This document shows, in pieces, positions 390 to 52,286 of a DNA stretch of 64,000 nt. This DNA comes from Alphaproteobacteria bacterium GM202ARS2. Its GTDB lineage: Bacteria > Pseudomonadota > Alphaproteobacteria > GM7ARS4. Both the position numbers and the translations under genes were made by a program. Under the pieces are notes generated by a model. The model was not told the origin of the DNA, searched no databases, and saw only the letters and a list, made by a program, of their open reading frames with translations. Location of the stretch: positions 27,009 through 91,008 of the forward strand of contig JACONH010000001.1 in assembly GCA_014323835.1 (NCBI GenBank), given 5' to 3'. The first letter of the stretch is position 1, and every line of letters starts with the position of its first letter.

Positions 390-519
390 TGGTGCGTTCT
401 CCTATTTTCAAAATCCACCCTCACCCTCGATATAGGTCATCAAAAAACCAAAACAAGACCATGAAAGCAAAAAATTATGGATTACCACACGTCATTTGTT
501 TAGGCATGGGTGCCTCAAT

Positions 520-535
520 TGTTTCACGTGAAACA
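520..535. promoter_or_regulatory. parS: Perfect consensus parS palindrome TGTTTCACGTGAAACA. It lies within AATTGTTTCACGTGAAACAATTCCTATTCGAGCA, about 130 bp upstream of the ankyrin gene.
   Basis: The 16-mer was read directly from the sequence. It is identical to the canonical ParB/Spo0J-binding parS consensus. Confidence 0.7.
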
Positions 536-564
536 ATTCCTATTCGAGCATAACCCAAAGCGTG

Positions 565-885
565 CTATCTCCCCCACACGCTCCACCAGAGGGCTACCCC
601 GCCGACAATGCCCCCCACGATACTGAGCTCTATCCCCGTCACCAGCATAACCCCCAAACAAAACGCCGGCAGCTGCTCCATGATTTTACGCCCCGACCAA
701 CCCCCCAAGCCCGCCACCATGCCATACGCAACCGATAAAAACCCCGCCACCATCGACACCGTCAACACATTGACAATCGACAACGCCACAGACGACCGCA
801 CCACCACAAAAACAACCCCCAAGACAACCGCAACCATCATGCCATAAAAAGCCCCAAAAAACGCGTTCTTTAATCCCTCAGACAT
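565..885 (-). CDS. Small hydrophobic membrane protein of 3-4 predicted TM helices. Function unknown.
   Basis: The minus-strand ORF translates to MSEGLKNAFFGAFYGMMVAVVLGVVFVVV..., which is Gly/Val/Ala-rich. The first ATG is at 885. The ORF track's start at 897 is a TTG. The gene is flanked by near-identical ~38-bp parS-containing direct repeats. Confidence 0.5.
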   Translation of the reverse strand: MSEGLKNAFFGAFYGMMVAVVLGVVFVVVRSSVALSIVNVLTVSMVAGFLSVAYGMVAGLGGWSGRKIMEQLPAFCLGVMLVTGIELSIVGGIVGGVALWWSVWGR

Positions 886-907
886 AACACCATCCAAAAA
901 AAAACAA

Positions 908-923
908 TTGTTTCTCGTGAAAC
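908..923. promoter_or_regulatory. parS: parS-like palindrome TGTTTCTCGTGAAACA with one mismatch. On the minus strand the hairpin AATTGTTTCACGAGAAACAATT is followed by a U9 run, so it may also be the intrinsic terminator of hisI.
   Basis: Read from the sequence. An A-run at 896-903 on the plus strand immediately precedes the palindrome, giving stem-loop plus U-tract on the hisI transcript strand. Confidence 0.55.
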
Positions 924-945
924 AATTCCTATTCGAGCAAACCCC

Positions 946-3360: not shown

Positions 3361-3549
3361 AATGTTTCGCGCGAAACATTTTGAGGAATTGTTTCCCGTG
3401 AAACATTATTTTTTTTGCTGAAATTGTTTCCCGTGAAACATTATTTTTTTTGCTGAAATTGTTTCTCGTGAAACATTATTTTTTTTTGCTGAAATTGTTT
3501 CCCGTGAAACATTATTTTTTTTTGCTGAAATTGTTTCTCGTGAAACAAT
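3361..3549. repeat. parS: Tandem array of parS-like palindromes. One degenerate copy TGTTTCGCGCGAAACA lies at ~3363. Five copies follow at cores ~3390, 3425, 3460, 3496 and 3532, phased every 35-36 bp, each followed by ATTATTTTTTTTTGCTGAA.
   Basis: The units AATTGTTTC(C/T)CGTGAAACATTATTTTTTTTTGCTGA were read directly. Each core has one mismatch to the consensus TGTTTCACGTGAAACA. The array lies 100-285 bp upstream of the fabI start. Confidence 0.75.
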
Positions 3550-3561
3550 TCCTATTTTTAC

Positions 3562-4244: not shown

Positions 4245-6056
4245 ATGCCCATTTCTAGTAATATGAGCACAGTGTTGCTGGCTCTGCGCATATCCCATAA
4301 AGAGAGGGATGTGCGTTTTCAACAAACCCAACTGGTGCGCAACACGGGCAATACGTCTGCTTCAGCGCATGTGTCTCGGGGTAACTGGCAGACAGTGCCC
4401 GAGAGTCGCAAGACCTTGCATGATCACTTTATGGCGCATGTGACCCATCAAGCCACCCATGCGATAGAACACAATAACGGGCATATACCGAGGAAAGTTG
4501 TTAAACGCTATCGCACGTTGCTCCGTGATATCGAGGCGGTCAATCATCCCCGTTTACGCAACAAGCCCCTGAAAGGGCGCGCCATACGTAAGCTGGCGAC
4601 TCGCTTGGTGGATGTGACCTCACAGGTGACATACTTTAACGGTAAAGGCAGGGATGCAGCAGGCGCGACAGGTGCGGGCTTGGATCGTGGCTCTGTTTTG
4701 TATGATGCGGTTGTCCACGATAGCAAGGGGCAGCTGACTCCTGTGCGCACGCCTTTGTTGCATCGGGCTTTCAAGCGTATTGCCTTGCGGTTTCAGTCGG
4801 GACGAGAGCATTATGCTAGGCGTGCCGCCGCGCAGTTTGCTCGTTCTCTTATCAACAGATACGGGCAGAGTGCCGCCTTGAGTGCCTTCGAGAAACAGGG
4901 GCTTGCCATACAGACGTATCTTGCTGAACTGGGCACCCGCAACCCATCGGTGCGTCTCTTATCAACGGACGATGTCCAAGCCATCGAGTCGCATATTGCC
5001 AAACCCTATCAAGACTCGAAGCGTTTGAGTCAACAAACCGACCAGCTGGCAAAAGAGTATGCTCTGGACGGAGACAAAGGCAAAATGATCTTTTCGCAGC
5101 TGGCATCAGTGGAGCAAGGAGCCTTATACAATCGTAATCGTAGGCAGTTGTTTTCTATTCGTTTTCGCACGATGCTCGAGGTTGCCATCGGCGACAAGGC
5201 TGAGCCCATCAGCAAACAAGAGGTAGAAAAAATCGCCCTCGAGACATGGCAGGCTCTTGCGGCAACGACCGATGAGGATGCCGCACGCCTCGCCAAAAAT
5301 GACGAAGACAGAAACAATGCTCTGTGGCAGCATCAGCAACTGCTCGCCTATGGACAAATTAACGAAAGCTTAGCCCACTTGGCTACGTTCAATACCTTGG
5401 TTAGCCAGCTGCTGAAAGAAGACCCGATTGTTGGCATAAAAAACGTAAGAAACGTGAGTGCATCACACGTATCTGTTCTTGCTGATGTTGCCCGCCGTCC
5501 TCTCAGGAGTCTCGATGCGACACAAGCAGAAAAGACTGCTCTCGAGCTGGCGGGCAACGCCATGAAAGGGTGGGGGATTGCTGTTGGTATTCTTTATGCC
5601 GATGCGGGCAATGCGCTTGTCCCGCACTCGAGTCGTCCTTCTTCTCTGTTTTTTCCCTATCCCGCCGAGCACAGCTACGATGACCTTCATAACGAGCATG
5701 ATAAACAGCAGTTCTTGCAGGCACAGGATGACTACTGGGAGCCAAAAAGTAGACTCGTCATGCAAAACGAGTTGTCCTTTTATCGTCTGACCGATGATAT
5801 GCGTGTCGCGGGCTCGGATACGGCGCGGCGCAACGGCGAAAGCATGAACACCGCCTTCAGAAACGCTATGGAAGCAGGAAGACGCCTACGAGAAAACATC
5901 GCAGGTGACATACAACAGAGTGACTCGCCCCATAATGCTATCACGGAACTTGCCCGCCAAGCCTCACACTACAGTGGCTTGTCAGCGACACAACAACGGG
6001 AAATCATGGATACCATCGCACGGGGCGTCGATGCTGCCGATGAAAAGACGTCTTGA
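4245..6056 (+). CDS. Large hypothetical protein of 603 aa with no recognisable domain. Orphan or possible secreted effector.
   Basis: Long uninterrupted ORF with coding-like composition. No signal peptide or TM helix. No motif I can assign from memory. Confidence 0.55.
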
Positions 6057-6420: not shown

Positions 6421-7296
6421 ATGAGCGGCACCCCCCAATTCACGATGCGGCAGCTGCTGGAAGCGGGCGTTCATTTTGGTCATCGCGTTCGGCGTTGGAA
6501 TCCGCGTATGGAGCCGTATATTTACGGCAAGCGGCAGAAGACCCATATTATTGATTTGCAGAAAACTGTTACGCTGTTGCGGGACGGCTTGGAGGCTCTT
6601 CGCCAAGCAGCTGCTCGAGGACAGCGTATACTCTTTGTCGGCACAAAGCGGCGCGCCTCTGCCGTTATTACCGCAGAAGCACAGCGGTGCCGCCAGTATT
6701 ACGTCAATTATCGCTGGTTGGGCGGCATGCTAACCAACTGGGGCACGGTGTCGGCATCGATTGACCGACTGCGTGCTCTCGAAAAAGCCTTAAAAGACGA
6801 CAACGACGGCCACACCAAAAAGGAACGCTTGCGTATCGAGCGAGAACACCAAAAACTCGAGCGCGCCATCGGCGGCATCAAAGATATGGGCAATCTGCCC
6901 GCTATTCTCTTCGTCATCGATACCGTCAAAGAAAACATTGCCGTGCAAGAAGCCTATAAACTCGGTATCCCCGTTGTGGCTGTCCTCGATTCCAACGCTG
7001 ACCCCACGTGCGTTACCTATCCTATCCCGGGCAACGATGATTCCCTCAAAGCCATTCGCTTGTATGCACGCCTCGCTGCCGATGCCGTCCTACAAGGCTT
7101 AGCAGAAACAGAAGCCCAACGCAGTAAAGACGAGTCGCGCTACAAAAAGAATGGCGCGGGCGATAGCACGCCCGCCGATAGCAAGAAAGCCGACAGCAAG
7201 AAGACTGATAGCAAGAAAGCGGATAGCAAGAAAACGGATAGCAAGAAAGCCGACAGCAAGTCTGCTGACGGCAAGAAGGCAAAGGGGGACTCATGA
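6421..7296 (+). CDS. rpsB: 30S ribosomal protein S2 with a ~45-aa Lys/Asp/Ser-rich C-terminal repeat extension
   Basis: [38 protein letters not shown]... is a canonical S2. The tail is [40 protein letters not shown]. Confidence 0.95.
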
Positions 7297-8171
7297 CGTC
7301 TCCTTCGATAGAGCAGATTAAGGCTTTGCGGGACAAGACGGGTGCGGGCATGATGGATTGCAAGGCAGCCTTGCAGGAGAGCGGCGGCGATAGGGGCAAG
7401 GCCGAGGATTGGTTGCGTAAGAAGGGCATTGCTAAAGCATCGCAAAAGTCCGAGCGTGCCACCGGCGAGGGCATCATTGCTGTTGCCCTCGAGCCGTCTC
7501 AGGCGGGCGTCATGATTGAAATTAATACCGAGACCGATTTTGTTGCTCGTAATGAATTGTTGCAGGAATTTGCTCGTTCCTGTGCGTCTCTTGCTTTGCG
7601 TGAGCGATGCGGCGACAAGGAGGCTCTGTTGGCTTTGCCCTATGGCACGGGTGATAGCAAAAAGTCGGTGCAGGTGGCTTTGACCGATTTGATTGCATCG
7701 GTGGGTGAAAACTTGGTGTTACAGCGGGTCGTCTTGCTGGAGGCAGGCGAGGGGACGTTGGTGTCTTATGTCCATAATGCTTACCAAGACAATATTGGGC
7801 GTATTGGGGTGATGTTGACGTTACGGGGGGAGGGGCAGAGCAATGGTGATTTGGGTAAGCAGTTGGCGATGCACGTAGCAGCCATGGCACCGTTGGCTTT
7901 GTCGGCGGAAGCGGTGCCGAAGGCGTGGGAGCAACGAGAACGAGACATTATTCTGGCTCAGGAGGACTTAAAGGATAAGCCTGCTGACATTGCCGAAAAA
8001 ATGGCGGAGGGGCGTTTGCGTAAACGTTATCAGGAGGTGGTTCTTCTCGACCAGCTGTGGGTGTTGGACGGCAAGACCCGTATGCGTGATGTGCTGGCTC
8101 AGCATGGCGCGGAGATTGTGTCTTATGTGCGTTTTGCCCTCGGAGAGAGCACAGGCGACACTGATGGCTAA
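7293..8171 (+). CDS. tsf: Elongation factor Ts
   Basis: [25 protein letters not shown]...[20 protein letters not shown] is a canonical EF-Ts N-terminus. The gene overlaps the rpsB stop (ATGA). Confidence 0.95.
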
Positions 8172-13270: not shown

Positions 13271-15658
13271 ATGACACCATACGTTCAAACCTTACGTGGC
13301 TACAAATACGCCGTTGCTACGCTCGTGTTGGCAACAGCCGTGGCGGGCGTCTTGGCGACTCCTCTTCCGGCAGAAGCTGGGGGGACAGGCGGGGCTGGCG
13401 GGGCAGGGAGGGCAGGGGGGGGTGGCACGCAAATCCCAGAAGGCTCACGGGTCATCAAAGACATTATCGTTAATGGCAATCAGCGTATCGCTTCCGAGAC
13501 GGTGATTTCCTATGCGGGCATCGAAGTGGGGGGGCCCTATAATGACGAGATTTTTTCTGCTGTGGTTAAAAATCTCTTCAAAACGGGCTTTTTCGGTGAT
13601 GTTGCCATTACCGCTAATCCTGATACGGATGTGGTGGTTATTTCTCTGCAAGAGAATCCGATTATCAACCGTATCGTTTTTGAGGGCAACAACGACATTA
13701 GCACCGAGAACCTTATGAACGAGGTTAATTTGCGTCCGCGTGTGGTTTATACCCGCACGAAAGTGCAACAGGCAACGGAGCGTCTCTTGGAGATTTATCG
13801 CCGCAGTGGACGCTTTTCAGCGAGGGTGGTGCCCAAGATTATCGAGCGTGCCGATAATCGGGTGGACTTGATCTTCGAAGTCGATGAAGGGCAGGTGACT
13901 CGTGTGTCTCGTATCATTTTTGTGGGTAATCGTGCTTTTGCCGACTCGACGTTGAAGGGCGAGATTCTGACGGAAGAGTCACGCTGGTATCGTTTTTTCA
14001 GTAGCGATGATACGTATGACCCCGACAGAGTGGCGTATGACCGCGAGCTGTTGCGGCGTTTTTATCTGCGTAATGGTTATGTTGATTTTTCGGTTGTGTC
14101 GGATTTGGGGGAGCTGACTCCGGATAGGCAGAGTTTTATCATCACGTATACGTTGCGGGAGGGTAAGCGTTATCGAGTGGGTAAGCGTTCGGTTATTAGT
14201 CAAGTGGATGACCTTAAGACGGTGGATTTTTCCGATGATATCGAACAAGATGAAGGCGATTGGTATTCGTCCGATGATGTCGATGTGACGGTGCAGAACA
14301 TTACGGATAGGGTGGGGGCGCGGGGCTATGCTTTTGTGTCGGTGCAGCCCCGTATCGAGCGCAATGTCGAGAAGGGGATTGTCAACGTCAATTATCACTT
14401 ACAGGAAGGGGAAAAGATTTTCATCGAGCGTATCAACATTGTTGGTAATAAGCGCACGTTGGACGAAGTGGTGCGCAGAGAATTGTTGGTGCAGGAGGGC
14501 GATGCGTTTAATACGGAGCTGATACGGCGGTCGAGGGAAGAACTGAATCGTTTGGGTCTGTTTTCTTCTGTGGACGTGCGTAATCGTCCGGGCGGTGTGC
14601 CGGACAGCACTGTTATTGATACGGACGTGCGGGAAACAGCCACTGGCGAGTTGTCGGTGGGCGCGGGCTTCTCAACGACGGATGGCGCGATTGGCAACCT
14701 GCGTATCCGTGAGCGTAATTTTCTTGGCAAGAATCAGGACTTGCTCTTTTCCTTTAACTTGTCGTCAAGGCGACAGGACTTCGATGTGTCGTTTACGGAG
14801 CCGTATCTTTTTGACCGCAAGGTTTCAGGGGGTATTGACTTATACCGCTTGCGGCGTGACTACGAGGACGAGGCTGGTTACATCAGCACCACTGTTGGTA
14901 CGGGGTTACGTTTTGGCTATCGGATTTTTCCTCGTTTGACGCAGAATTGGCGCTATAGCATCGATTCATCGAGCATCGATGAAACCAATCGTGAGAATTC
15001 GTTGTTGCGCAGTGATGATGGCTCGACGTCGGCTTTGACGCAGTCGTTGATTTATGACGATAGGAATTCGACGTTTAATCCGACGGAAGGGTTTTACTCG
15101 AATGCGAGTGTTACGTATGCGGGCTTGGGTGGCTCTTTTGCTTATTGGCAGTTTACGGCTCGTTTGGCGTATTATTATCCGTTCGCGCCGGATTGGATTG
15201 GTCGCCTGCAAGCCCACGGCGGCCACATTCAAAAAGCACGAGGAAAAGTCATTCGAACAACCGACCGATTCTTTGTTGGCGGCGATGACTTCCGTGGCTT
15301 TGAGTTTTACGGCATAGGGCCTCGAGATAGAAACAATGACGACTCCCTTGGCGGCGAGACGTATTATGTTGTCCAGTATGAGCAAGGTTTTCCGATTGGT
15401 TTGCCGCAAGAGTTGGGCATAGAAGGACGTGCTTTTATTGATTTTGGTTCGCTGTTTGATGTAGAATATAGTGACCTCAGCGATGATGACTTGCAAGAGA
15501 GGGCATACCTTGATAAAACGCCAAGGATATCTATAGGAGCTGGTTTTGCGTGGTCTTCGCCTTTTGGGCCTGTGCGCATATACTTTGGCTTTCCTATTAA
15601 GAAACAGCCTTATGACCGCCGCGAGACGTTGCGTTTTACGTTTGGCACTCGGTTTTAA
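13271..15658 (+). CDS. bamA: Outer membrane protein assembly factor BamA (Omp85)
   Basis: 795 aa. Signal peptide, POTRA-like repeats, and a C-terminal beta-barrel ending ...LRFTFGTRF. A Gly-rich insert GGTGGAGGAGRAGGGGT follows the signal peptide. Confidence 0.93.
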   Translation: MTPYVQTLRGYKYAVATLVLATAVAGVLATPLPAEAGGTGGAGGAGRAGGGGTQIPEGSRVIKDIIVNGNQRIASETVISYAGIEVGGPYNDEIFSAVVKNLFKTGFFGDVAITANPDTDVVVISLQENPIINRIVFEGNNDISTENLMNEVNLRPRVVYTRTKVQQATERLLEIYRRSGRFSARVVPKIIERADNRVDLIFEVDEGQVTRVSRIIFVGNRAFADSTLKGEILTEESRWYRFFSSDDTYDPDRVAYDRELLRRFYLRNGYVDFSVVSDLGELTPDRQSFIITYTLREGKRYRVGKRSVISQVDDLKTVDFSDDIEQDEGDWYSSDDVDVTVQNITDRVGARGYAFVSVQPRIERNVEKGIVNVNYHLQEGEKIFIERINIVGNKRTLDEVVRRELLVQEGDAFNTELIRRSREELNRLGLFSSVDVRNRPGGVPDSTVIDTDVRETATGELSVGAGFSTTDGAIGNLRIRERNFLGKNQDLLFSFNLSSRRQDFDVSFTEPYLFDRKVSGGIDLYRLRRDYEDEAGYISTTVGTGLRFGYRIFPRLTQNWRYSIDSSSIDETNRENSLLRSDDGSTSALTQSLIYDDRNSTFNPTEGFYSNASVTYAGLGGSFAYWQFTARLAYYYPFAPDWIGRLQAHGGHIQKARGKVIRTTDRFFVGGDDFRGFEFYGIGPRDRNNDDSLGGETYYVVQYEQGFPIGLPQELGIEGRAFIDFGSLFDVEYSDLSDDDLQERAYLDKTPRISIGAGFAWSSPFGPVRIYFGFPIKKQPYDRRETLRFTFGTRF

Positions 15659-38071: not shown

Positions 38072-38359
38072 TCAAGTCGAGAGCTGTTTGCCCGTCATTT
38101 GTTTTTTCTGGAATGAACGTATTTCCTCCAGCTTGTCGGATACGCCATCTTTGATATCAACACTGCACGTTGCGTTGACGTCTGCCCCCGCTTGAACCAA
38201 TACATCAATCACGGAAAGATTTTTGTTGAATAACACAGCATAATGCAAGGGTGTCGCATCGTACTCATCGCGTGCATTGACATCTTCTCCAGCATCGAGA
38301 CGCTTTTTGACATCCTCAGGGGTTGCCCGTTTCATGAACTCTTTATCTAATAACTGCAT
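38072..38359 (-). CDS. Small ankyrin-repeat protein, a paralogue
   Basis: MQLLDKEFMKRATPEDVKKRLDAGEDVNARDEYDATPLHYAVLFNKNLSVIDVLVQAGADVNA shares its N-terminal 17 aa almost exactly with the 27655-27933 gene. Confidence 0.8.
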   Translation of the reverse strand: MQLLDKEFMKRATPEDVKKRLDAGEDVNARDEYDATPLHYAVLFNKNLSVIDVLVQAGADVNATCSVDIKDGVSDKLEEIRSFQKKQMTGKQLST

Positions 38360-38444
38360 GGCGTCCGCTCTCTTTTAAGCCTCATACCCCCGCACCTACG
38401 GTATAAATAAGCCAATAAAAAAAGCAAAGCAAGGCAATAAATGA

Positions 38445-38460
38445 AAAGAGCAATTGTTTC
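38445..38460. promoter_or_regulatory. parS: parS-like palindrome TGTTTCCCGTGAAACA with one mismatch, within CAATTGTTTCCCGTGAAACAATTG. It lies ~86 bp upstream of the ankyrin start.
   Basis: Read directly from the sequence. Confidence 0.65.
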
Positions 38461-38516
38461 CCGTGAAACAATTGCGCGCACACACAAAAAAGCGCGCCCA
38501 TCAAGCCAGCATACAA

Positions 38517-39572
38517 TCAGTTATTTTTGCCTTTATTCGTGGGTGGCTTGAACCTCTCACCAATACGTGGGCTTCCAACAAGGGGAGGAGCATCAGGCGG
38601 TCCACCACCAGGCAGGCTATCAGCAAGTAAGCCACGAACAGGTTGGGTCGAGCCACCTCTCAGTTGGGTAGCAATAAGGTCACCAGCAAGTGGGCTACCC
38701 GCAGCCGCAGGAAGGCTATCAGCAAGTAAACCACGAACAAGTTGGGTCGAGCCACCACTCAGTTGGGTATCAATGGTTGGGTCATCAAGAGGGCTATCAT
38801 AAACAGGTGTTTTGTTATCGGCACTCATGATTAAGTCAAGTGTAAGCAAGCAGTTTCTCTTGCTGGCATAGCCCTCGCTATGGACGATGACGGTGTTGCT
38901 CTTTTCATCTATTAAATCCCAACACCACTTACCCGAAATTTTAGGATAAACATCAAAAAACGTTCCAGGAGCAGATGCTTTTTTATCGCCGCTTATCAAC
39001 GATTGAAGACCCCGTGCGTGGCTTTCATCCTCATGAACAGGCGCACTTTGATTGGCATCGGTCACTAAGTCAAGAATTTGCAAGCAGTGCTCCTTATCTT
39101 TATACCCCCATTTGCTATTGGCAATGGCTTTACCTTGATCCGACATAAGTTTCCAGCGCCACTTTTTATCTGAATCTTGATACAGGTCAAAATACAAGCC
39201 CGCTCCCTCTGTCCCCGTCTTTTTTTTGCCACTTTCACGAAGAGGTGTTTTGTAACTGGTGTACTTCACGAATTTAATAGCATCAAAGCAGTCTTGCTTA
39301 TCCGTATACCCCTCGCCACGGGCAACAATAGCGCGATTAGCGTTTTTCAAGTCCCACTGCCACTTCCCTGCCTCTTCATAAACGAAAAAATAGACGCTCG
39401 TTTCTCTCGCACGAATAATTGTGCCGTCATGGGTATCCTGCACCAGTTGAACAGCACCCCGACACGCTTGCTCGCTTGTATAGCCCTCCTTATGGGCAAT
39501 CATTTCGCGGTCTTTATCGTGCAAGTCCCAACGCCACGCACCAAAAGAAGTAGAATAAACAGTAAAAAACAT
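38517..39572 (-). CDS. Protein with four tandem YegP/DUF1508 (UPF0339) domains and a C-terminal tandem 24-aa repeat
   Basis: Four copies of the G.W.W.L........A.SEGY.SK..C pattern (AWRWDLHDKDREMIAHKEGYTSEQACRGAV; KWQWDLKNANRAIVARGEGYTDKQDCFDAI; KWRWKLMSDQGKAIANSKWGYKDKEHCLQI; KWCWDLIDEKSNTVIVHSEGYASKRNCLLT). The C-terminus has QLSGGSTQLVRGLLADSLPAAAGSPLAGDLIAT / QLRGGSTQPVRGLLADSLPGG. Start chosen at the Met with an AGGAG ribosome-binding site (MFFTVYSTSFGAWRW...). The track ORF begins 70 codons upstream. Confidence 0.7.
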   Translation of the reverse strand: MFFTVYSTSFGAWRWDLHDKDREMIAHKEGYTSEQACRGAVQLVQDTHDGTIIRARETSVYFFVYEEAGKWQWDLKNANRAIVARGEGYTDKQDCFDAIKFVKYTSYKTPLRESGKKKTGTEGAGLYFDLYQDSDKKWRWKLMSDQGKAIANSKWGYKDKEHCLQILDLVTDANQSAPVHEDESHARGLQSLISGDKKASAPGTFFDVYPKISGKWCWDLIDEKSNTVIVHSEGYASKRNCLLTLDLIMSADNKTPVYDSPLDDPTIDTQLSGGSTQLVRGLLADSLPAAAGSPLAGDLIATQLRGGSTQPVRGLLADSLPGGGPPDAPPLVGSPRIGERFKPPTNKGKNN

Positions 39573-51121: not shown

Positions 51122-51649
51122 TCAGAAGGGGCATGCCTCGAGAGCACTGCGCCACGCCGATGAAAATCCTTTGAGGGAAAACTCATCGATGGTGGTGGTG
51201 TCTCGCCAGGACAGAGCTTCGACGGTGGCTTTGAGACCCGAGCGAAAGCCTTGAATGATGCGTCTATCCTGCTTTCTATCGAGGGACCAGGCGACTTCGC
51301 CTTGCGTGAAGCCCAGCTCATATGTTGCTTCATCGATGGTGAGGCTTGCACCTGTGGCTTTTTTATAGCGGTAGCCCGCTGTGTAGCTGACTTCGCCGTT
51401 AGGGGCAGCCCTCGACGCACTGACAATCAAAAATACCGCACCGCGGCGCGTGTAGTTGCCTTCTGACGTCAGAGGCTGAGAGGACACAAAACAGACTTGC
51501 TTGCGTCCTTCTCCGTCCGTCCAAGCGTTCCAATCATCGTAAGTGCCAATGTGACGAGTCGCCGCCTGAGCGGACGCACACGGCAAAAACAAAACGAACA
51601 ACAGAACAAGCGCGCCCCAACAAAAAAATCGTACCCGTAAACACGTCAT
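51122..51649 (-). CDS. ialB: Invasion-associated locus B (IalB) family periplasmic protein
   Basis: Signal peptide MTCLRVRFFCWGALVLLFVLFLPCASAQA. ...DDWNAWTDGEGRKQVCFVSSQP...RGAVFLIVSASR...EFSLKGFSSAWRSALEAC matches the IalB pattern (DW.A.C..., RGAVF..V, ...SL.GF..A..A....C). Confidence 0.7.
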   Translation of the reverse strand: MTCLRVRFFCWGALVLLFVLFLPCASAQAATRHIGTYDDWNAWTDGEGRKQVCFVSSQPLTSEGNYTRRGAVFLIVSASRAAPNGEVSYTAGYRYKKATGASLTIDEATYELGFTQGEVAWSLDRKQDRRIIQGFRSGLKATVEALSWRDTTTIDEFSLKGFSSAWRSALEACPF

Positions 51650-51782
51650 CTTTGCGAAACCCATAACAACATAATAGGGTCTGTTTACCACAGCCTGTCA
51701 TAAAAAAAAAGCCCGCAGAAAAGATAGCGACTCGTCTGTCGGACGGTTTTTTCTATTTCAAGCATGTTATTCTCTTTTATCT

Positions 51783-52286
51783 ATGCTACACAAAGGTATG
51801 ACTCCGTTTCGTCTTGTTTTTATCTGCACGGGCAATATATGTCGTTCGCCGACGGCTGAAGCCGTCATGCGTGCTCTTGTCCACAAAGATGGCTTGTCTG
51901 ACCGCTATCCCGTGGACTCTGCTGGCACCAGTGACTTTCATGATGGCGAAGGCATCGACCCACGTGCTGCTCAAATTGCCCAAGCCCATGGTTATGACAC
52001 AACGGGTATCCGCGCCCGTGCCGTGCGGGCAGACGACTTTCTCGCAACAGGCATCATGTTCGCCATGACTCGAGAGCACTTACGCTTCCTAGAAGCGATG
52101 GCACAAACCATCGACGCACAAAAAAGACGCTGTCGTCTTGCTTTGTTTGCCGAAGGTTTGCCAGAACCCTACCCTTTAGATGTCCCTGACCCTTACTATG
52201 GTGGGCAAAAAGGATTCGAAGACGTCCTAACCATGATTGAAGCAGGCTGCCAGCACCATTGGCAGACCATAAAAGACCATGCGTAA
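51783..52286 (+). CDS. Low-molecular-weight protein-tyrosine phosphatase
   Basis: FRLVFICTGNICRSPTAEAVMR carries the CX5R(S/T) P-loop. ...DPYYGG... Confidence 0.9.
   Translation: MLHKGMTPFRLVFICTGNICRSPTAEAVMRALVHKDGLSDRYPVDSAGTSDFHDGEGIDPRAAQIAQAHGYDTTGIRARAVRADDFLATGIMFAMTREHLRFLEAMAQTIDAQKRRCRLALFAEGLPEPYPLDVPDPYYGGQKGFEDVLTMIEAGCQHHWQTIKDHA

Follow-up and report, generated by a model that had tools for sequence, protein, structure and literature searches.

The window analysed here is the whole 64-kb stretch of DNA from the sponge-symbiont metagenome-assembled genome (MAG) GM202ARS2 (JGI contig Ga0189853_1000006), and its subject is a set of sites matching parS, the chromosomal centromere sequence on which ParB loads. 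These parS-type sites are far more numerous than chance would allow, most single copies lie in a conserved promoter unit upstream of ankyrin-repeat genes, and the same element recurs on a second contig of the MAG and in a related species. The reading we favour, with slightly better than even confidence, is that they are genuine ParB-loading parS sites that have multiplied as tandem arrays and spread together with ankyrin-gene units, a few of them (for example that at 909) also serving as terminators. ParB binding, centromere function and terminator activity are what we infer from these sequences. GM202ARS2 itself is a 1.83-Mb MAG with 53.3% G+C in 49 contigs, obtained from the sponge Lamellodysidea herbacea and placed in the proposed order “Ca. 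Methylospongiales”, and it encodes a type III secretion system (PMC7313196).

A scan of the window for matches to TGTTTCACGTGAAACA with at most two mismatches returned exactly 15 sites between 520 and 38470, where shuffled sequences lead to an expectation of 0.02; the original prediction had counted at least 15 in 38 kb. Against the 16-bp palindrome tGTTNCACGTGAAACa, six are perfect, eight carry one mismatch and one carries two, and by this match they belong with chromosomal parS. Since a 16-bp palindrome can take 65,536 forms and parS is just one of them, the match cannot be put down to coincidence. The observation is real and highly non-random, and at the level of sequence the identification as parS holds. 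Twelve sites form two six-site arrays (3363-3547 and 28022-28247) and three are single (520-535, 909-924 and 38455-38470); all are given without strand. The first single is the perfect parS that had been predicted. The second has the expected single mismatch, but lies at 909-924 and not at 908-923, and the last had been placed at 38445-38460, ten positions from where it stands.

The family is sharply bounded and without decayed relics, because the window holds no copies with three or four mismatches; isolated half-sites are not enriched either. Every site is intergenic, all five loci fall between minus-strand genes, and most sites begin 1-46 nt past a stop codon. Of the window’s intergenic gaps, roughly 40 or more, 5 carry the element. 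Imperfect intergenic palindromes, transcribed at gene 3′ ends, are also what defines repetitive extragenic palindromes (REP) and bacterial interspersed mosaic elements (BIME), and the sites agree with that description as well. No site occurs in the 8.6 kb left of the window or in the 25.5 kb right of 38470, a bounding within the contig that, with five loci, is not statistically significant. In all, about 87 kb of GM202ARS2 DNA was examined, containing 10 element loci, and the general pattern of the copies is TGTTTCNNNNGAAACA.

For the anatomy of the core, 28 sites were tabulated and oriented by their flanking genes: 20 from GM202ARS2 (15 in the window and 5 on the second contig) and 8 from the related species. 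Core positions 1-6 and 11-16 are invariant in 28/28 sites, and variation is confined to positions 7-10. At position 10, the GM202ARS2 sites have T in 10, A in 5, G in 4 and C in 1, while 7/8 sites of the relative read CATGTG. The downstream flank is nearly fixed, being ATT in 19/20 GM202ARS2 sites or TTT in 8/8 of the relative’s, followed by CCT, and the upstream flank is looser; together with AAT/ATT flanks the core makes a 22-bp palindrome. The twelve outer positions stay invariant and show no compensatory substitution at all, which speaks for a sequence-specific protein that recognises them. Judged from the alignment, this invariance and the lack of decayed copies fit such a protein better than a requirement for a hairpin only.

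The single copies are tied to ankyrin genes. Each of the three ankyrin genes in the window (3/3) has a site upstream, and at three of the five element loci (3/5) an ankyrin gene stands just downstream. ANK1 (minus strand, 1-389), the 5′ part of a gene for a 239-aa ankyrin-repeat protein that runs off the window, is preceded by CTTGTT at 452-457, a 16-nt spacer and CTATAT at 430-435. ANK2 (minus, 27655-27933; 92 aa) has CTTGAT at 27992-27997, a 17-nt spacer and TTATAT at 27969-27974, the promoter-like motif beginning 24 nt downstream of the last core of the second array. ANK3 (minus, 38072-38359; 95 aa) has CTTGCT at 38428-38433, a 17-nt spacer and TTATTT at 38405-38410, beginning 21 nt downstream of the 38455 core. 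This last core, TGTTTCCCGTGAAACA at 38455-38470, is contained in a 24-bp palindrome (GCAATTG...CAATTGC), and the gene order around it is tpiA, a gene of DUF1508 repeats, the site, ANK3 and then secG-pyrG. The DUF1508-repeat gene (minus, 38517-39572), between tpiA and the site, encodes a 351-aa repeated YegP-like protein with 67-nt internal repeats that are 93% identical, and it is absent from the orthologous place in the relative.

When eight ankyrin upstream regions, taken from the two species, are aligned, a stereotyped unit emerges, in the order core, WTTCCTA, CTTGNT, a 16-17-nt spacer, a TATA-type hexamer, a ribosome-binding site and ATG-CAG. Most single sites belong to this conserved core-WTTCCTA-CTTG-N16-17-TATA-ankyrin unit, and the ankyrin proteins downstream of it begin MQLL.KEFM..AT.ED. 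The alphaproteobacterial sigma-70 consensus is CTTGAC-N17-CTATAT. A consensus promoter scan called none of the ankyrin promoters, its criteria being E. coli-type hexamers. The distance from core to -35-like element in the eight aligned promoters is 21, 21, 23, 24, 26, 30, 31 and 32 nt. At least three ankyrin genes have no upstream site: two of them, at 20016 in the left flank (L001) and at 13459 at the end of the second contig (L209), have a similar promoter region, and the third (L209 7057) has a 34-bp upstream gap. A literature search found no published link between parS and ankyrin genes, nor between parS and REP-like behaviour.

The two arrays repeat the core at high density. Array 1 (3363-3547) has six parS-type cores, with a 17-kDa-antigen-like lipoprotein gene (stop 3562) on one side and fabI on the other. 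Five of its six cores come as 36-bp units (AATTGTTTC[C/T]CGTGAAACATTATTTTTTTTTGCTGA) that are 96% alike, and Tandem Repeats Finder describes the array as 36 bp x 4.5 copies, 96% alike. The outermost core, at 3363-3378, is the symmetric variant TGTTTCGCGCGAAACA, with the symmetric double change GCGC. Array 2 (28022-28247) has six cores, five of them perfect, at a period of 38-47 bp, which Tandem Repeats Finder renders as 39 bp x 5.5 copies, 74% alike, with indels; it is inserted between holB (stop 28263) and ANK2, inside an otherwise conserved tmk-holB-metG run. Both arrays share one unit with one spacer type, AATTGTTTCNCGTGAAACA-TTA-T8-9-GCTG, and their T-runs are on the plus strand, which has no flanking gene. 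The spacers of array 2 also hold G7 runs (28116-28122 and 28164-28170), and homopolymer tracts of these kinds could vary the unit length by slippage. Both are direct arrays of at least four units with one ParB-type palindrome each and a regular period of tens of bp, as in iterated centromeres; they do not lie beside parAB on an extrachromosomal or mobile replicon, their neighbours being the core chromosomal genes fabI, aroC, holB, metG, pyrG and rpoA. An origin of the iteron or oriC type was considered for the arrays and rejected, as their units are palindromic, DnaA boxes are absent and no rep gene was noted among the neighbours.

The search for ANK3 homologues brought up a further contig of this MAG (locus L209), the second one, where five more sites, two of them perfect, lie within 4.6 kb. 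These are also all intergenic: one follows rpsT, others stand after and before ankyrin genes and before a small hypothetical gene with a Fic gene, and one is where an ankyrin gene and dksA converge. The small hypothetical and Fic genes (L209 12543-13367), a 72-aa open reading frame (ORF) and a Fic-domain gene between two ankyrin genes, are preceded by a perfect parS with a promoter-like unit, and they are a possible toxin-antitoxin pair or effector.

The ANK3 homologues also brought up a related species, represented by four contigs in ENA ERZ25068803, its TpiA and PyrG being 70% and 87% identical to the window proteins, and it shares the gene order scpAB-tatABC-serS-tpiA-ankyrin-secG-pyrG...tmk-holB. 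Its site two bases past the tpiA stop codon, directly upstream of an ankyrin gene, occupies the position orthologous to 38455. A block of site + ankyrin units also lies between its LMWPc and IalB-argG genes; near 51.7 kb in the window, LMWPc and IalB (ORFs 51122-51691 and 51783-52286, their functions assigned by gene order with L212) are adjacent, with neither site nor ankyrin gene. At one site of the relative (L212 8786), which lies in a promoter region between divergent genes, no upstream gene is left to be terminated. The count of ankyrin units varies between co-occurring strains of the relative, and BLAST identifies the additional unit as a diverged tandem duplicate, site included (L213 2570-3157 against L212 8785-9370, 74% identity). 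Sites are gained and lost together with ankyrin genes, as follows from the site + ankyrin block and from these differences in unit number between species and strains. The strain differences concern two loci, L212 8786-9700 versus L213 750-4150 (197 aa versus 565 + 418 aa) and L210 versus L211, tpiA being followed in the latter pair by two versus three ankyrin genes; every additional gene comes with a parS-like site of its own.

A metagenome-collection scan with a 25-mer of core + arm, in a collection that does not hold the window’s own contig, gave six matches on unrelated contigs of differing G+C, about the number expected by chance, and two pairs among them come from the same or a near-identical source. 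The 18-mer AATT + core was too unspecific as a query, even in the viral collection. In a genome-collection scan with AroC, the best relatives were 63-65% identical and an exact parS was present in 0/80 loci. A protein search with a 505-aa ankyrin protein was dominated by generic long ankyrin proteins, with no MAG paralogue among the matches listed.

At the first locus, the gene order is hisI, the 909 site, an ORFan gene, the 520 site and ANK1, and two copies of a direct repeat bracket the ORFan as had been predicted; they are 41 nt long and 93% identical (516-556 and 905-945, without strand), with the consensus CAATTGTTTC[A/T]CGTGAAACAATTCCTATTCGAGCA[T/A]A[A/C]CCC. Copy A (516-556) contains a 22-bp palindrome at 517-538 (AATTGTTTCACGTGAAACAATT) around the perfect core at 520-535, with the one-sided arm CCTATTCGAGCATAACCC; with both genes on the minus strand, it follows the ORFan stop codon by 29 nt and precedes the ANK1 -35-like element by ~65 nt. 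Copy B (905-945) has the core TGTTTCTCGTGAAACA at 909-924, and its arm abuts the hisI stop codon (946-948). A third copy of this 41-nt sub-type is on the second contig, where its arm abuts the dksA stop codon. The ORFan (NCBI GDA50_00180; minus, 565-885) encodes a 106-aa hydrophobic protein whose sole match among 5.8 billion proteins is itself and which belongs to no Pfam family. Its in-frame codon score of 0.25 is within the range of certain window genes (0.14-0.37) and far above that of its other frames, and it is probably a real gene.

The arm CAATTCCTATT / AATAGGAATTG does recur at the array edges, as the original prediction had it, with 3532-3559 and 28010-28037 being 96% complementary. 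The extended perfect 34-bp palindrome that had been drawn from this recurrence is a composite present in no copy: the AATAGG/CCTATT arm is one-sided in each, and the best match, 900-933, has three mismatches, all within one arm. Nor do the repeats make a cassette like a miniature inverted-repeat transposable element (MITE). They are direct and not terminal inverted repeats, their flanks diverge immediately outside the 41 nt without a duplicated target, and the ORF is single-copy with gene-like codon usage. A MITE consists of many near-identical non-coding copies, and this candidate was rejected for the 389-bp unit, which contains a gene-like ORF unique among 5.8 billion proteins and an interior that is repeated nowhere in the window. 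What recurs is a site with a promoter and an ankyrin gene, not a short non-coding element. The 516-556/905-945 pair is best read, from its sequence, as a local duplication of a stop-codon-proximal repeat and not as a transposable cassette. Element copies do mark the edges of lineage-specific genes.

Copy B had also been proposed as the terminator of hisI. On the minus strand, the palindrome at 906-927 is followed by G and T9 (896-904), 21 nt past the hisI stop codon at 946-948, giving a candidate intrinsic terminator at 896-927 with the hairpin AAUUGUUUC-ACGA-GAAACAAUU, then G and U9. The predicted geometry, a 9-bp stem with U9, is present; however, the A/U-rich stem has 2 G-C pairs and folds at -11.6 kcal/mol in a 66-nt context (z = -0.8), and a consensus terminator scan, which requires at least 3 G-C pairs, called no site. 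The hairpins after two ankyrin genes on the second contig are followed by UUUUUAUUUUUG, rpsT likewise has a hairpin and U-run after its stop codon, and the 38455 copy has a U-rich tail. A U-tract on the transcribed strand is missing both from most of the relative’s copies and from every internal array unit. Termination is not the unifying function because U-tracts are absent from most copies, the stems are weak with modest fold z-scores, and one of the relative’s sites lies between divergent genes. It is a plausible side function of some copies, and would not be what holds the family together. Rfam at gathering thresholds matched no family over the window, and a tRNA search likewise returned nothing in these 64 kb of the 1.83-Mb genome.

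The original prediction had placed the window near the replication origin. The array neighbourhood is a housekeeping chromosomal region (rpsB-tsf, lpx genes, pyrG, eno and rpoA), the gene map at 12-28 kb and 48-64 kb resting on ORFs, Pfam and orthology with the relative. ParA, ParB and DnaA motifs and the DnaA box are all absent from the 64-kb window, and origin-marker genes such as hemE and mnmG/rsmG are not among the gene calls and Pfam hits examined there; the supplement of the MAG paper contains no information on parB or dnaA. GC skew over the window and flank has no clean polarity switch and is dominated by local effects. It was rejected as an origin locator, since the negative island at about -0.6 to 3.3 kb has positive skew on both sides and carries no origin signature. 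The island itself (-0.23 to -0.37, about -650 to 3350) covers ANK1, the ORFan, hisI, aroC and fabI. Coding strands are C-rich at 27-50 kb, the opposite of 7-21 kb, and the skew pattern may stem from a recent inversion or from a separate history. The second cluster of sites (L209) follows rpsT, a gene that directly precedes dnaA in Caulobacter (PMC4489657); by that analogy it is only a hint of origin proximity.

Taken together, we propose that the centromere sequence parS became a small intergenic repeat family in this symbiont lineage. The host ParB, a cytidine triphosphate (CTP)-dependent DNA clamp, would load at each 16-bp core, and the two six-unit arrays would be high-density loading platforms with the layout of plasmid and phage iterated centromeres. 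The single copies would lie in a unit consisting of the upstream gene’s stop codon, an A/T-flanked core, WTTCCTA, a CTTG-N16-17-TATA promoter and an ankyrin gene, and would have reached new places as such ankyrin-gene units duplicated or moved. With a 22-bp palindrome just past stop codons and a U-run, some copies may also end transcription (906-927 behind hisI), and the 516-556/905-945 pair would be a local duplication of the 41-nt sub-type around the ORFan.

Several points weigh against this proposal. The ParB of GM202ARS2 was not seen in the about 87 kb examined, and the sites occur on at least two contigs. A6 (position 7/10) is one of the two bases that set ParB-versus-Noc specificity and separate parS from the Noc site (PMC7383237); 10/20 GM202ARS2 sites alter it in one half-site, and nearly all of the relative’s sites share an off-consensus CATGTG centre. 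The ParB residues that govern specificity are R173, T179, A184 and G201 in Caulobacter (PMC7383237), and a change among them in this lineage could account for the variation tolerated at A6 and at C8. Variation in the central four bases is also expected of a stem-loop under selection, the one-sided conserved flank (ATT/TTT + CCTA; WTTCCTA) is not explained by a symmetric ParB dimer, and the tight tie to ankyrin promoters suggests that the role is in regulation, not in segregation.

That last consideration is the core of the best-surviving alternative, which we hold to be possible though improbable: the sites may be cis-regulatory, an operator or loading site for a ParB-family protein (the chromosomal ParB, or a KorB- or VirB-like paralogue) or for another dimeric regulator of ankyrin genes, with any centromere role of the singles secondary or absent. 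It is favoured by the core lying 21-32 nt upstream of the -35-like element in eight aligned ankyrin promoters of two species, by the sites upstream of all three window ankyrin genes, by the relative’s L212 8786 site in a divergent promoter region with nothing upstream to terminate, and by the conservation of the one-sided WTTCCTA flank. KorB of RK2 is one precedent. Others are VirB at virS (PMC10770331) and ParB on com genes (PMC4488948). On the other hand, the core to -35 distances are not phased, unlike those of classical activator sites, two loci precede the non-ankyrin genes fabI and ORFan, and at least three ankyrin genes do without a site, two of them with a similar promoter region. The six-site arrays far exceed the needs of an operator, and no regulator gene was seen beside the sites.

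Slightly less probable again, in our estimate, are REP-like transcribed intergenic hairpins, dispersed through the genome and acting as 3′-UTR (untranslated region) stabilisers or terminators, with a core derived from parS and no present ParB role. Such hairpins would agree with the intergenic position of every site, mostly 1-46 nt past a stop codon, with variation in loop positions 7-10 alone, and with a symmetry-preserving flank switch (T...A in GM202ARS2, A...T in the relative); some copies have U-rich tails, and sites are present on two contigs. Yet the stem sequence is invariant, with no compensatory substitutions within the core in 28 copies, and the stems are weak (2 G-C pairs), none passing the consensus terminator scan. 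The transcribed-strand U-tract is missing from most of the relative’s copies and all internal array units, the presence of the element in 5 of roughly 40 or more window gaps argues against a general terminator, and Rfam has no match. No RAYT/TnpA-like gene is among the genes with family hits examined, no RAYT-specific screen of the window having been made.

By analogy with the plasmid regulators, a more speculative and rather unlikely extension is that ParB-parS has been co-opted in ‘Ca. Methylospongiales’ as a control on ankyrin genes, where every ankyrin unit would have a ParB loading site to itself, ParB-CTP clamps would gate or insulate expression as KorB and VirB do on plasmids, and ankyrin duplication would enlarge the centromere. 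If true, chromosome segregation machinery would be coupled to symbiosis-gene regulation on a bacterial chromosome. Very unlikely, finally, are mobile-cassette boundaries, in which the palindromes would be recombination sites (like integron attC sites or MITE ends) for the insertion and excision of ankyrin and ORFan genes: the bracketed genes are lineage-specific (ORFan, ankyrin, Fic and small hypothetical genes), conserved runs are interrupted (tmk-holB / metG and tpiA / secG) and block content differs between co-occurring relative strains (L212 vs L213, L210 vs L211). Against this, terminal inverted repeats are lacking apart from the palindrome, no target site is duplicated, and the about 87 kb examined showed neither an integrase nor a transposase. 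The strain differences are accounted for by units of site, promoter and ankyrin gene duplicating in tandem (L213 2570-3157 vs L212 8785-9370, 74%, site included), and the ORFan cassette occurs once among 5.8 billion proteins.

The usual picture of parS is of a few fixed sites near the origin; in this symbiont the 16-mer behaves as a repeat family, in tandem on a chromosome, in an ankyrin promoter unit, and gained or lost with ankyrin genes between species and strains. If ParB loads at all copies, as we favour, the centromere would grow by hitch-hiking on gene duplication, with a possible route for ParB clamps to influence host-interaction genes. If it does not, the element would be a rare REP-like one derived from a centromere sequence.

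Other features of the window deserve mention. Divergent from the lipoprotein gene beside array 1 is a 603-aa ORF (plus, 4245-6056) whose codon usage is gene-like and which belongs to no Pfam family; its product could be secreted as an effector, the MAG having a type III secretion system. A 15-bp tandem repeat in the 3′ end of rpsB (7147-7295) gives S2 a C-terminal tail of about 45 residues with a 10-residue repeat. A holin of the gene-transfer-agent type (GTA_holin_3TM) adjoins a DUF4268 protein at 22562-24303 (minus), in a segment with a G+C of 0.47 and reversed GC skew.

Among known systems, one close counterpart is the chromosomal parS cluster bound by ParB/Spo0J, of which there are examples in B. 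subtilis, C. crescentus, C. glutamicum and M. xanthus. P. aeruginosa has 10 parS sites, four of them beside oriC (PMC4368675). The window resembles such clusters in the palindrome itself, in having many sites within tens of kb and in tolerating copies with 1-2 mismatches. It differs in that 12/15 sites are in two head-to-tail arrays with a common spacer, that all are intergenic, that variation is restricted to the central four bases and not scattered, and that the singles are part of an ankyrin promoter unit.

The arrays resemble iterated plasmid and phage centromeres, which are direct arrays (those with 4-8 units having a period of 26-55 bp) with one 16-bp ParB-type palindrome per unit; sopC of F, for example, is 12 x 43 bp with one 16-bp SopB palindrome each. 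A pattern scan of the viral collection IMG/VR for perfect sites spaced 14-40 bp returned parS arrays on 114 phage- or plasmid-like contigs, most often at a period of 34 bp (range 26-55 bp) and with no more than 8 sites in a run. Repeating the canonical site head to tail is a frequent way of building a centromere, and this favours the ParB-loading reading. Two viral contigs illustrate them: L249 (5981-6075), a phi29-like podovirus with the Gp16 packaging ATPase, has four canonical host-type parS at a 26-bp period, and L305 (6136-6460) has eight at a 38-bp period. The phi29-like podoviruses are a group known to carry host Spo0J sites. The 404-kb C. perfringens plasmid pJFP838A (NZ_CP013615.1, about 7534-7660; L214 3975-4105) carries four unannotated tandem parS-like sites ~35 bp apart in an intergenic region beside tmk, two with the CACATG centre, a core variant that is also present among GM202ARS2 sites. 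Unlike these iterated centromeres, the arrays of the window lie in a chromosomal housekeeping region with no adjacent parAB, and have T8-9 runs in their spacers.

Short intergenic palindromic repeats that often lie just past stop codons and are occasionally clustered, with copies within a genome more alike than orthologous ones, recall REP/BIME elements and MITEs. In the present element, by contrast, the invariant stem is a known protein-binding site and the arrays are strictly head-to-tail; terminal inverted repeats and target-site duplications are lacking, and no RAYT or transposase was seen among the genes examined. Rho-independent terminators share the hairpin and U-run directly past a stop codon (hisI in the window, rpsT and two ankyrin genes on the second contig), but here the A/U-rich stems, with 2 G-C pairs, fail the consensus scan and most copies have no U-tract on the transcribed strand.

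The last comparison is with regulators of the ParB family. KorB, with its operator OB on plasmid RK2, is a ParB-family regulator with a parS-like operator. VirB of Shigella is reported to act through virS, a site it binds ahead of virulence promoters (PMC10770331), and in S. pneumoniae the com genes are reported to be modulated by ParB as it spreads from parS (PMC4488948). As in these systems, accessory or host-interaction genes here have a ParB-type palindrome upstream of their promoters, at no fixed distance. Unlike the KorB and VirB operators, however, the core of the present element is chromosomal parS itself and not a diverged operator.

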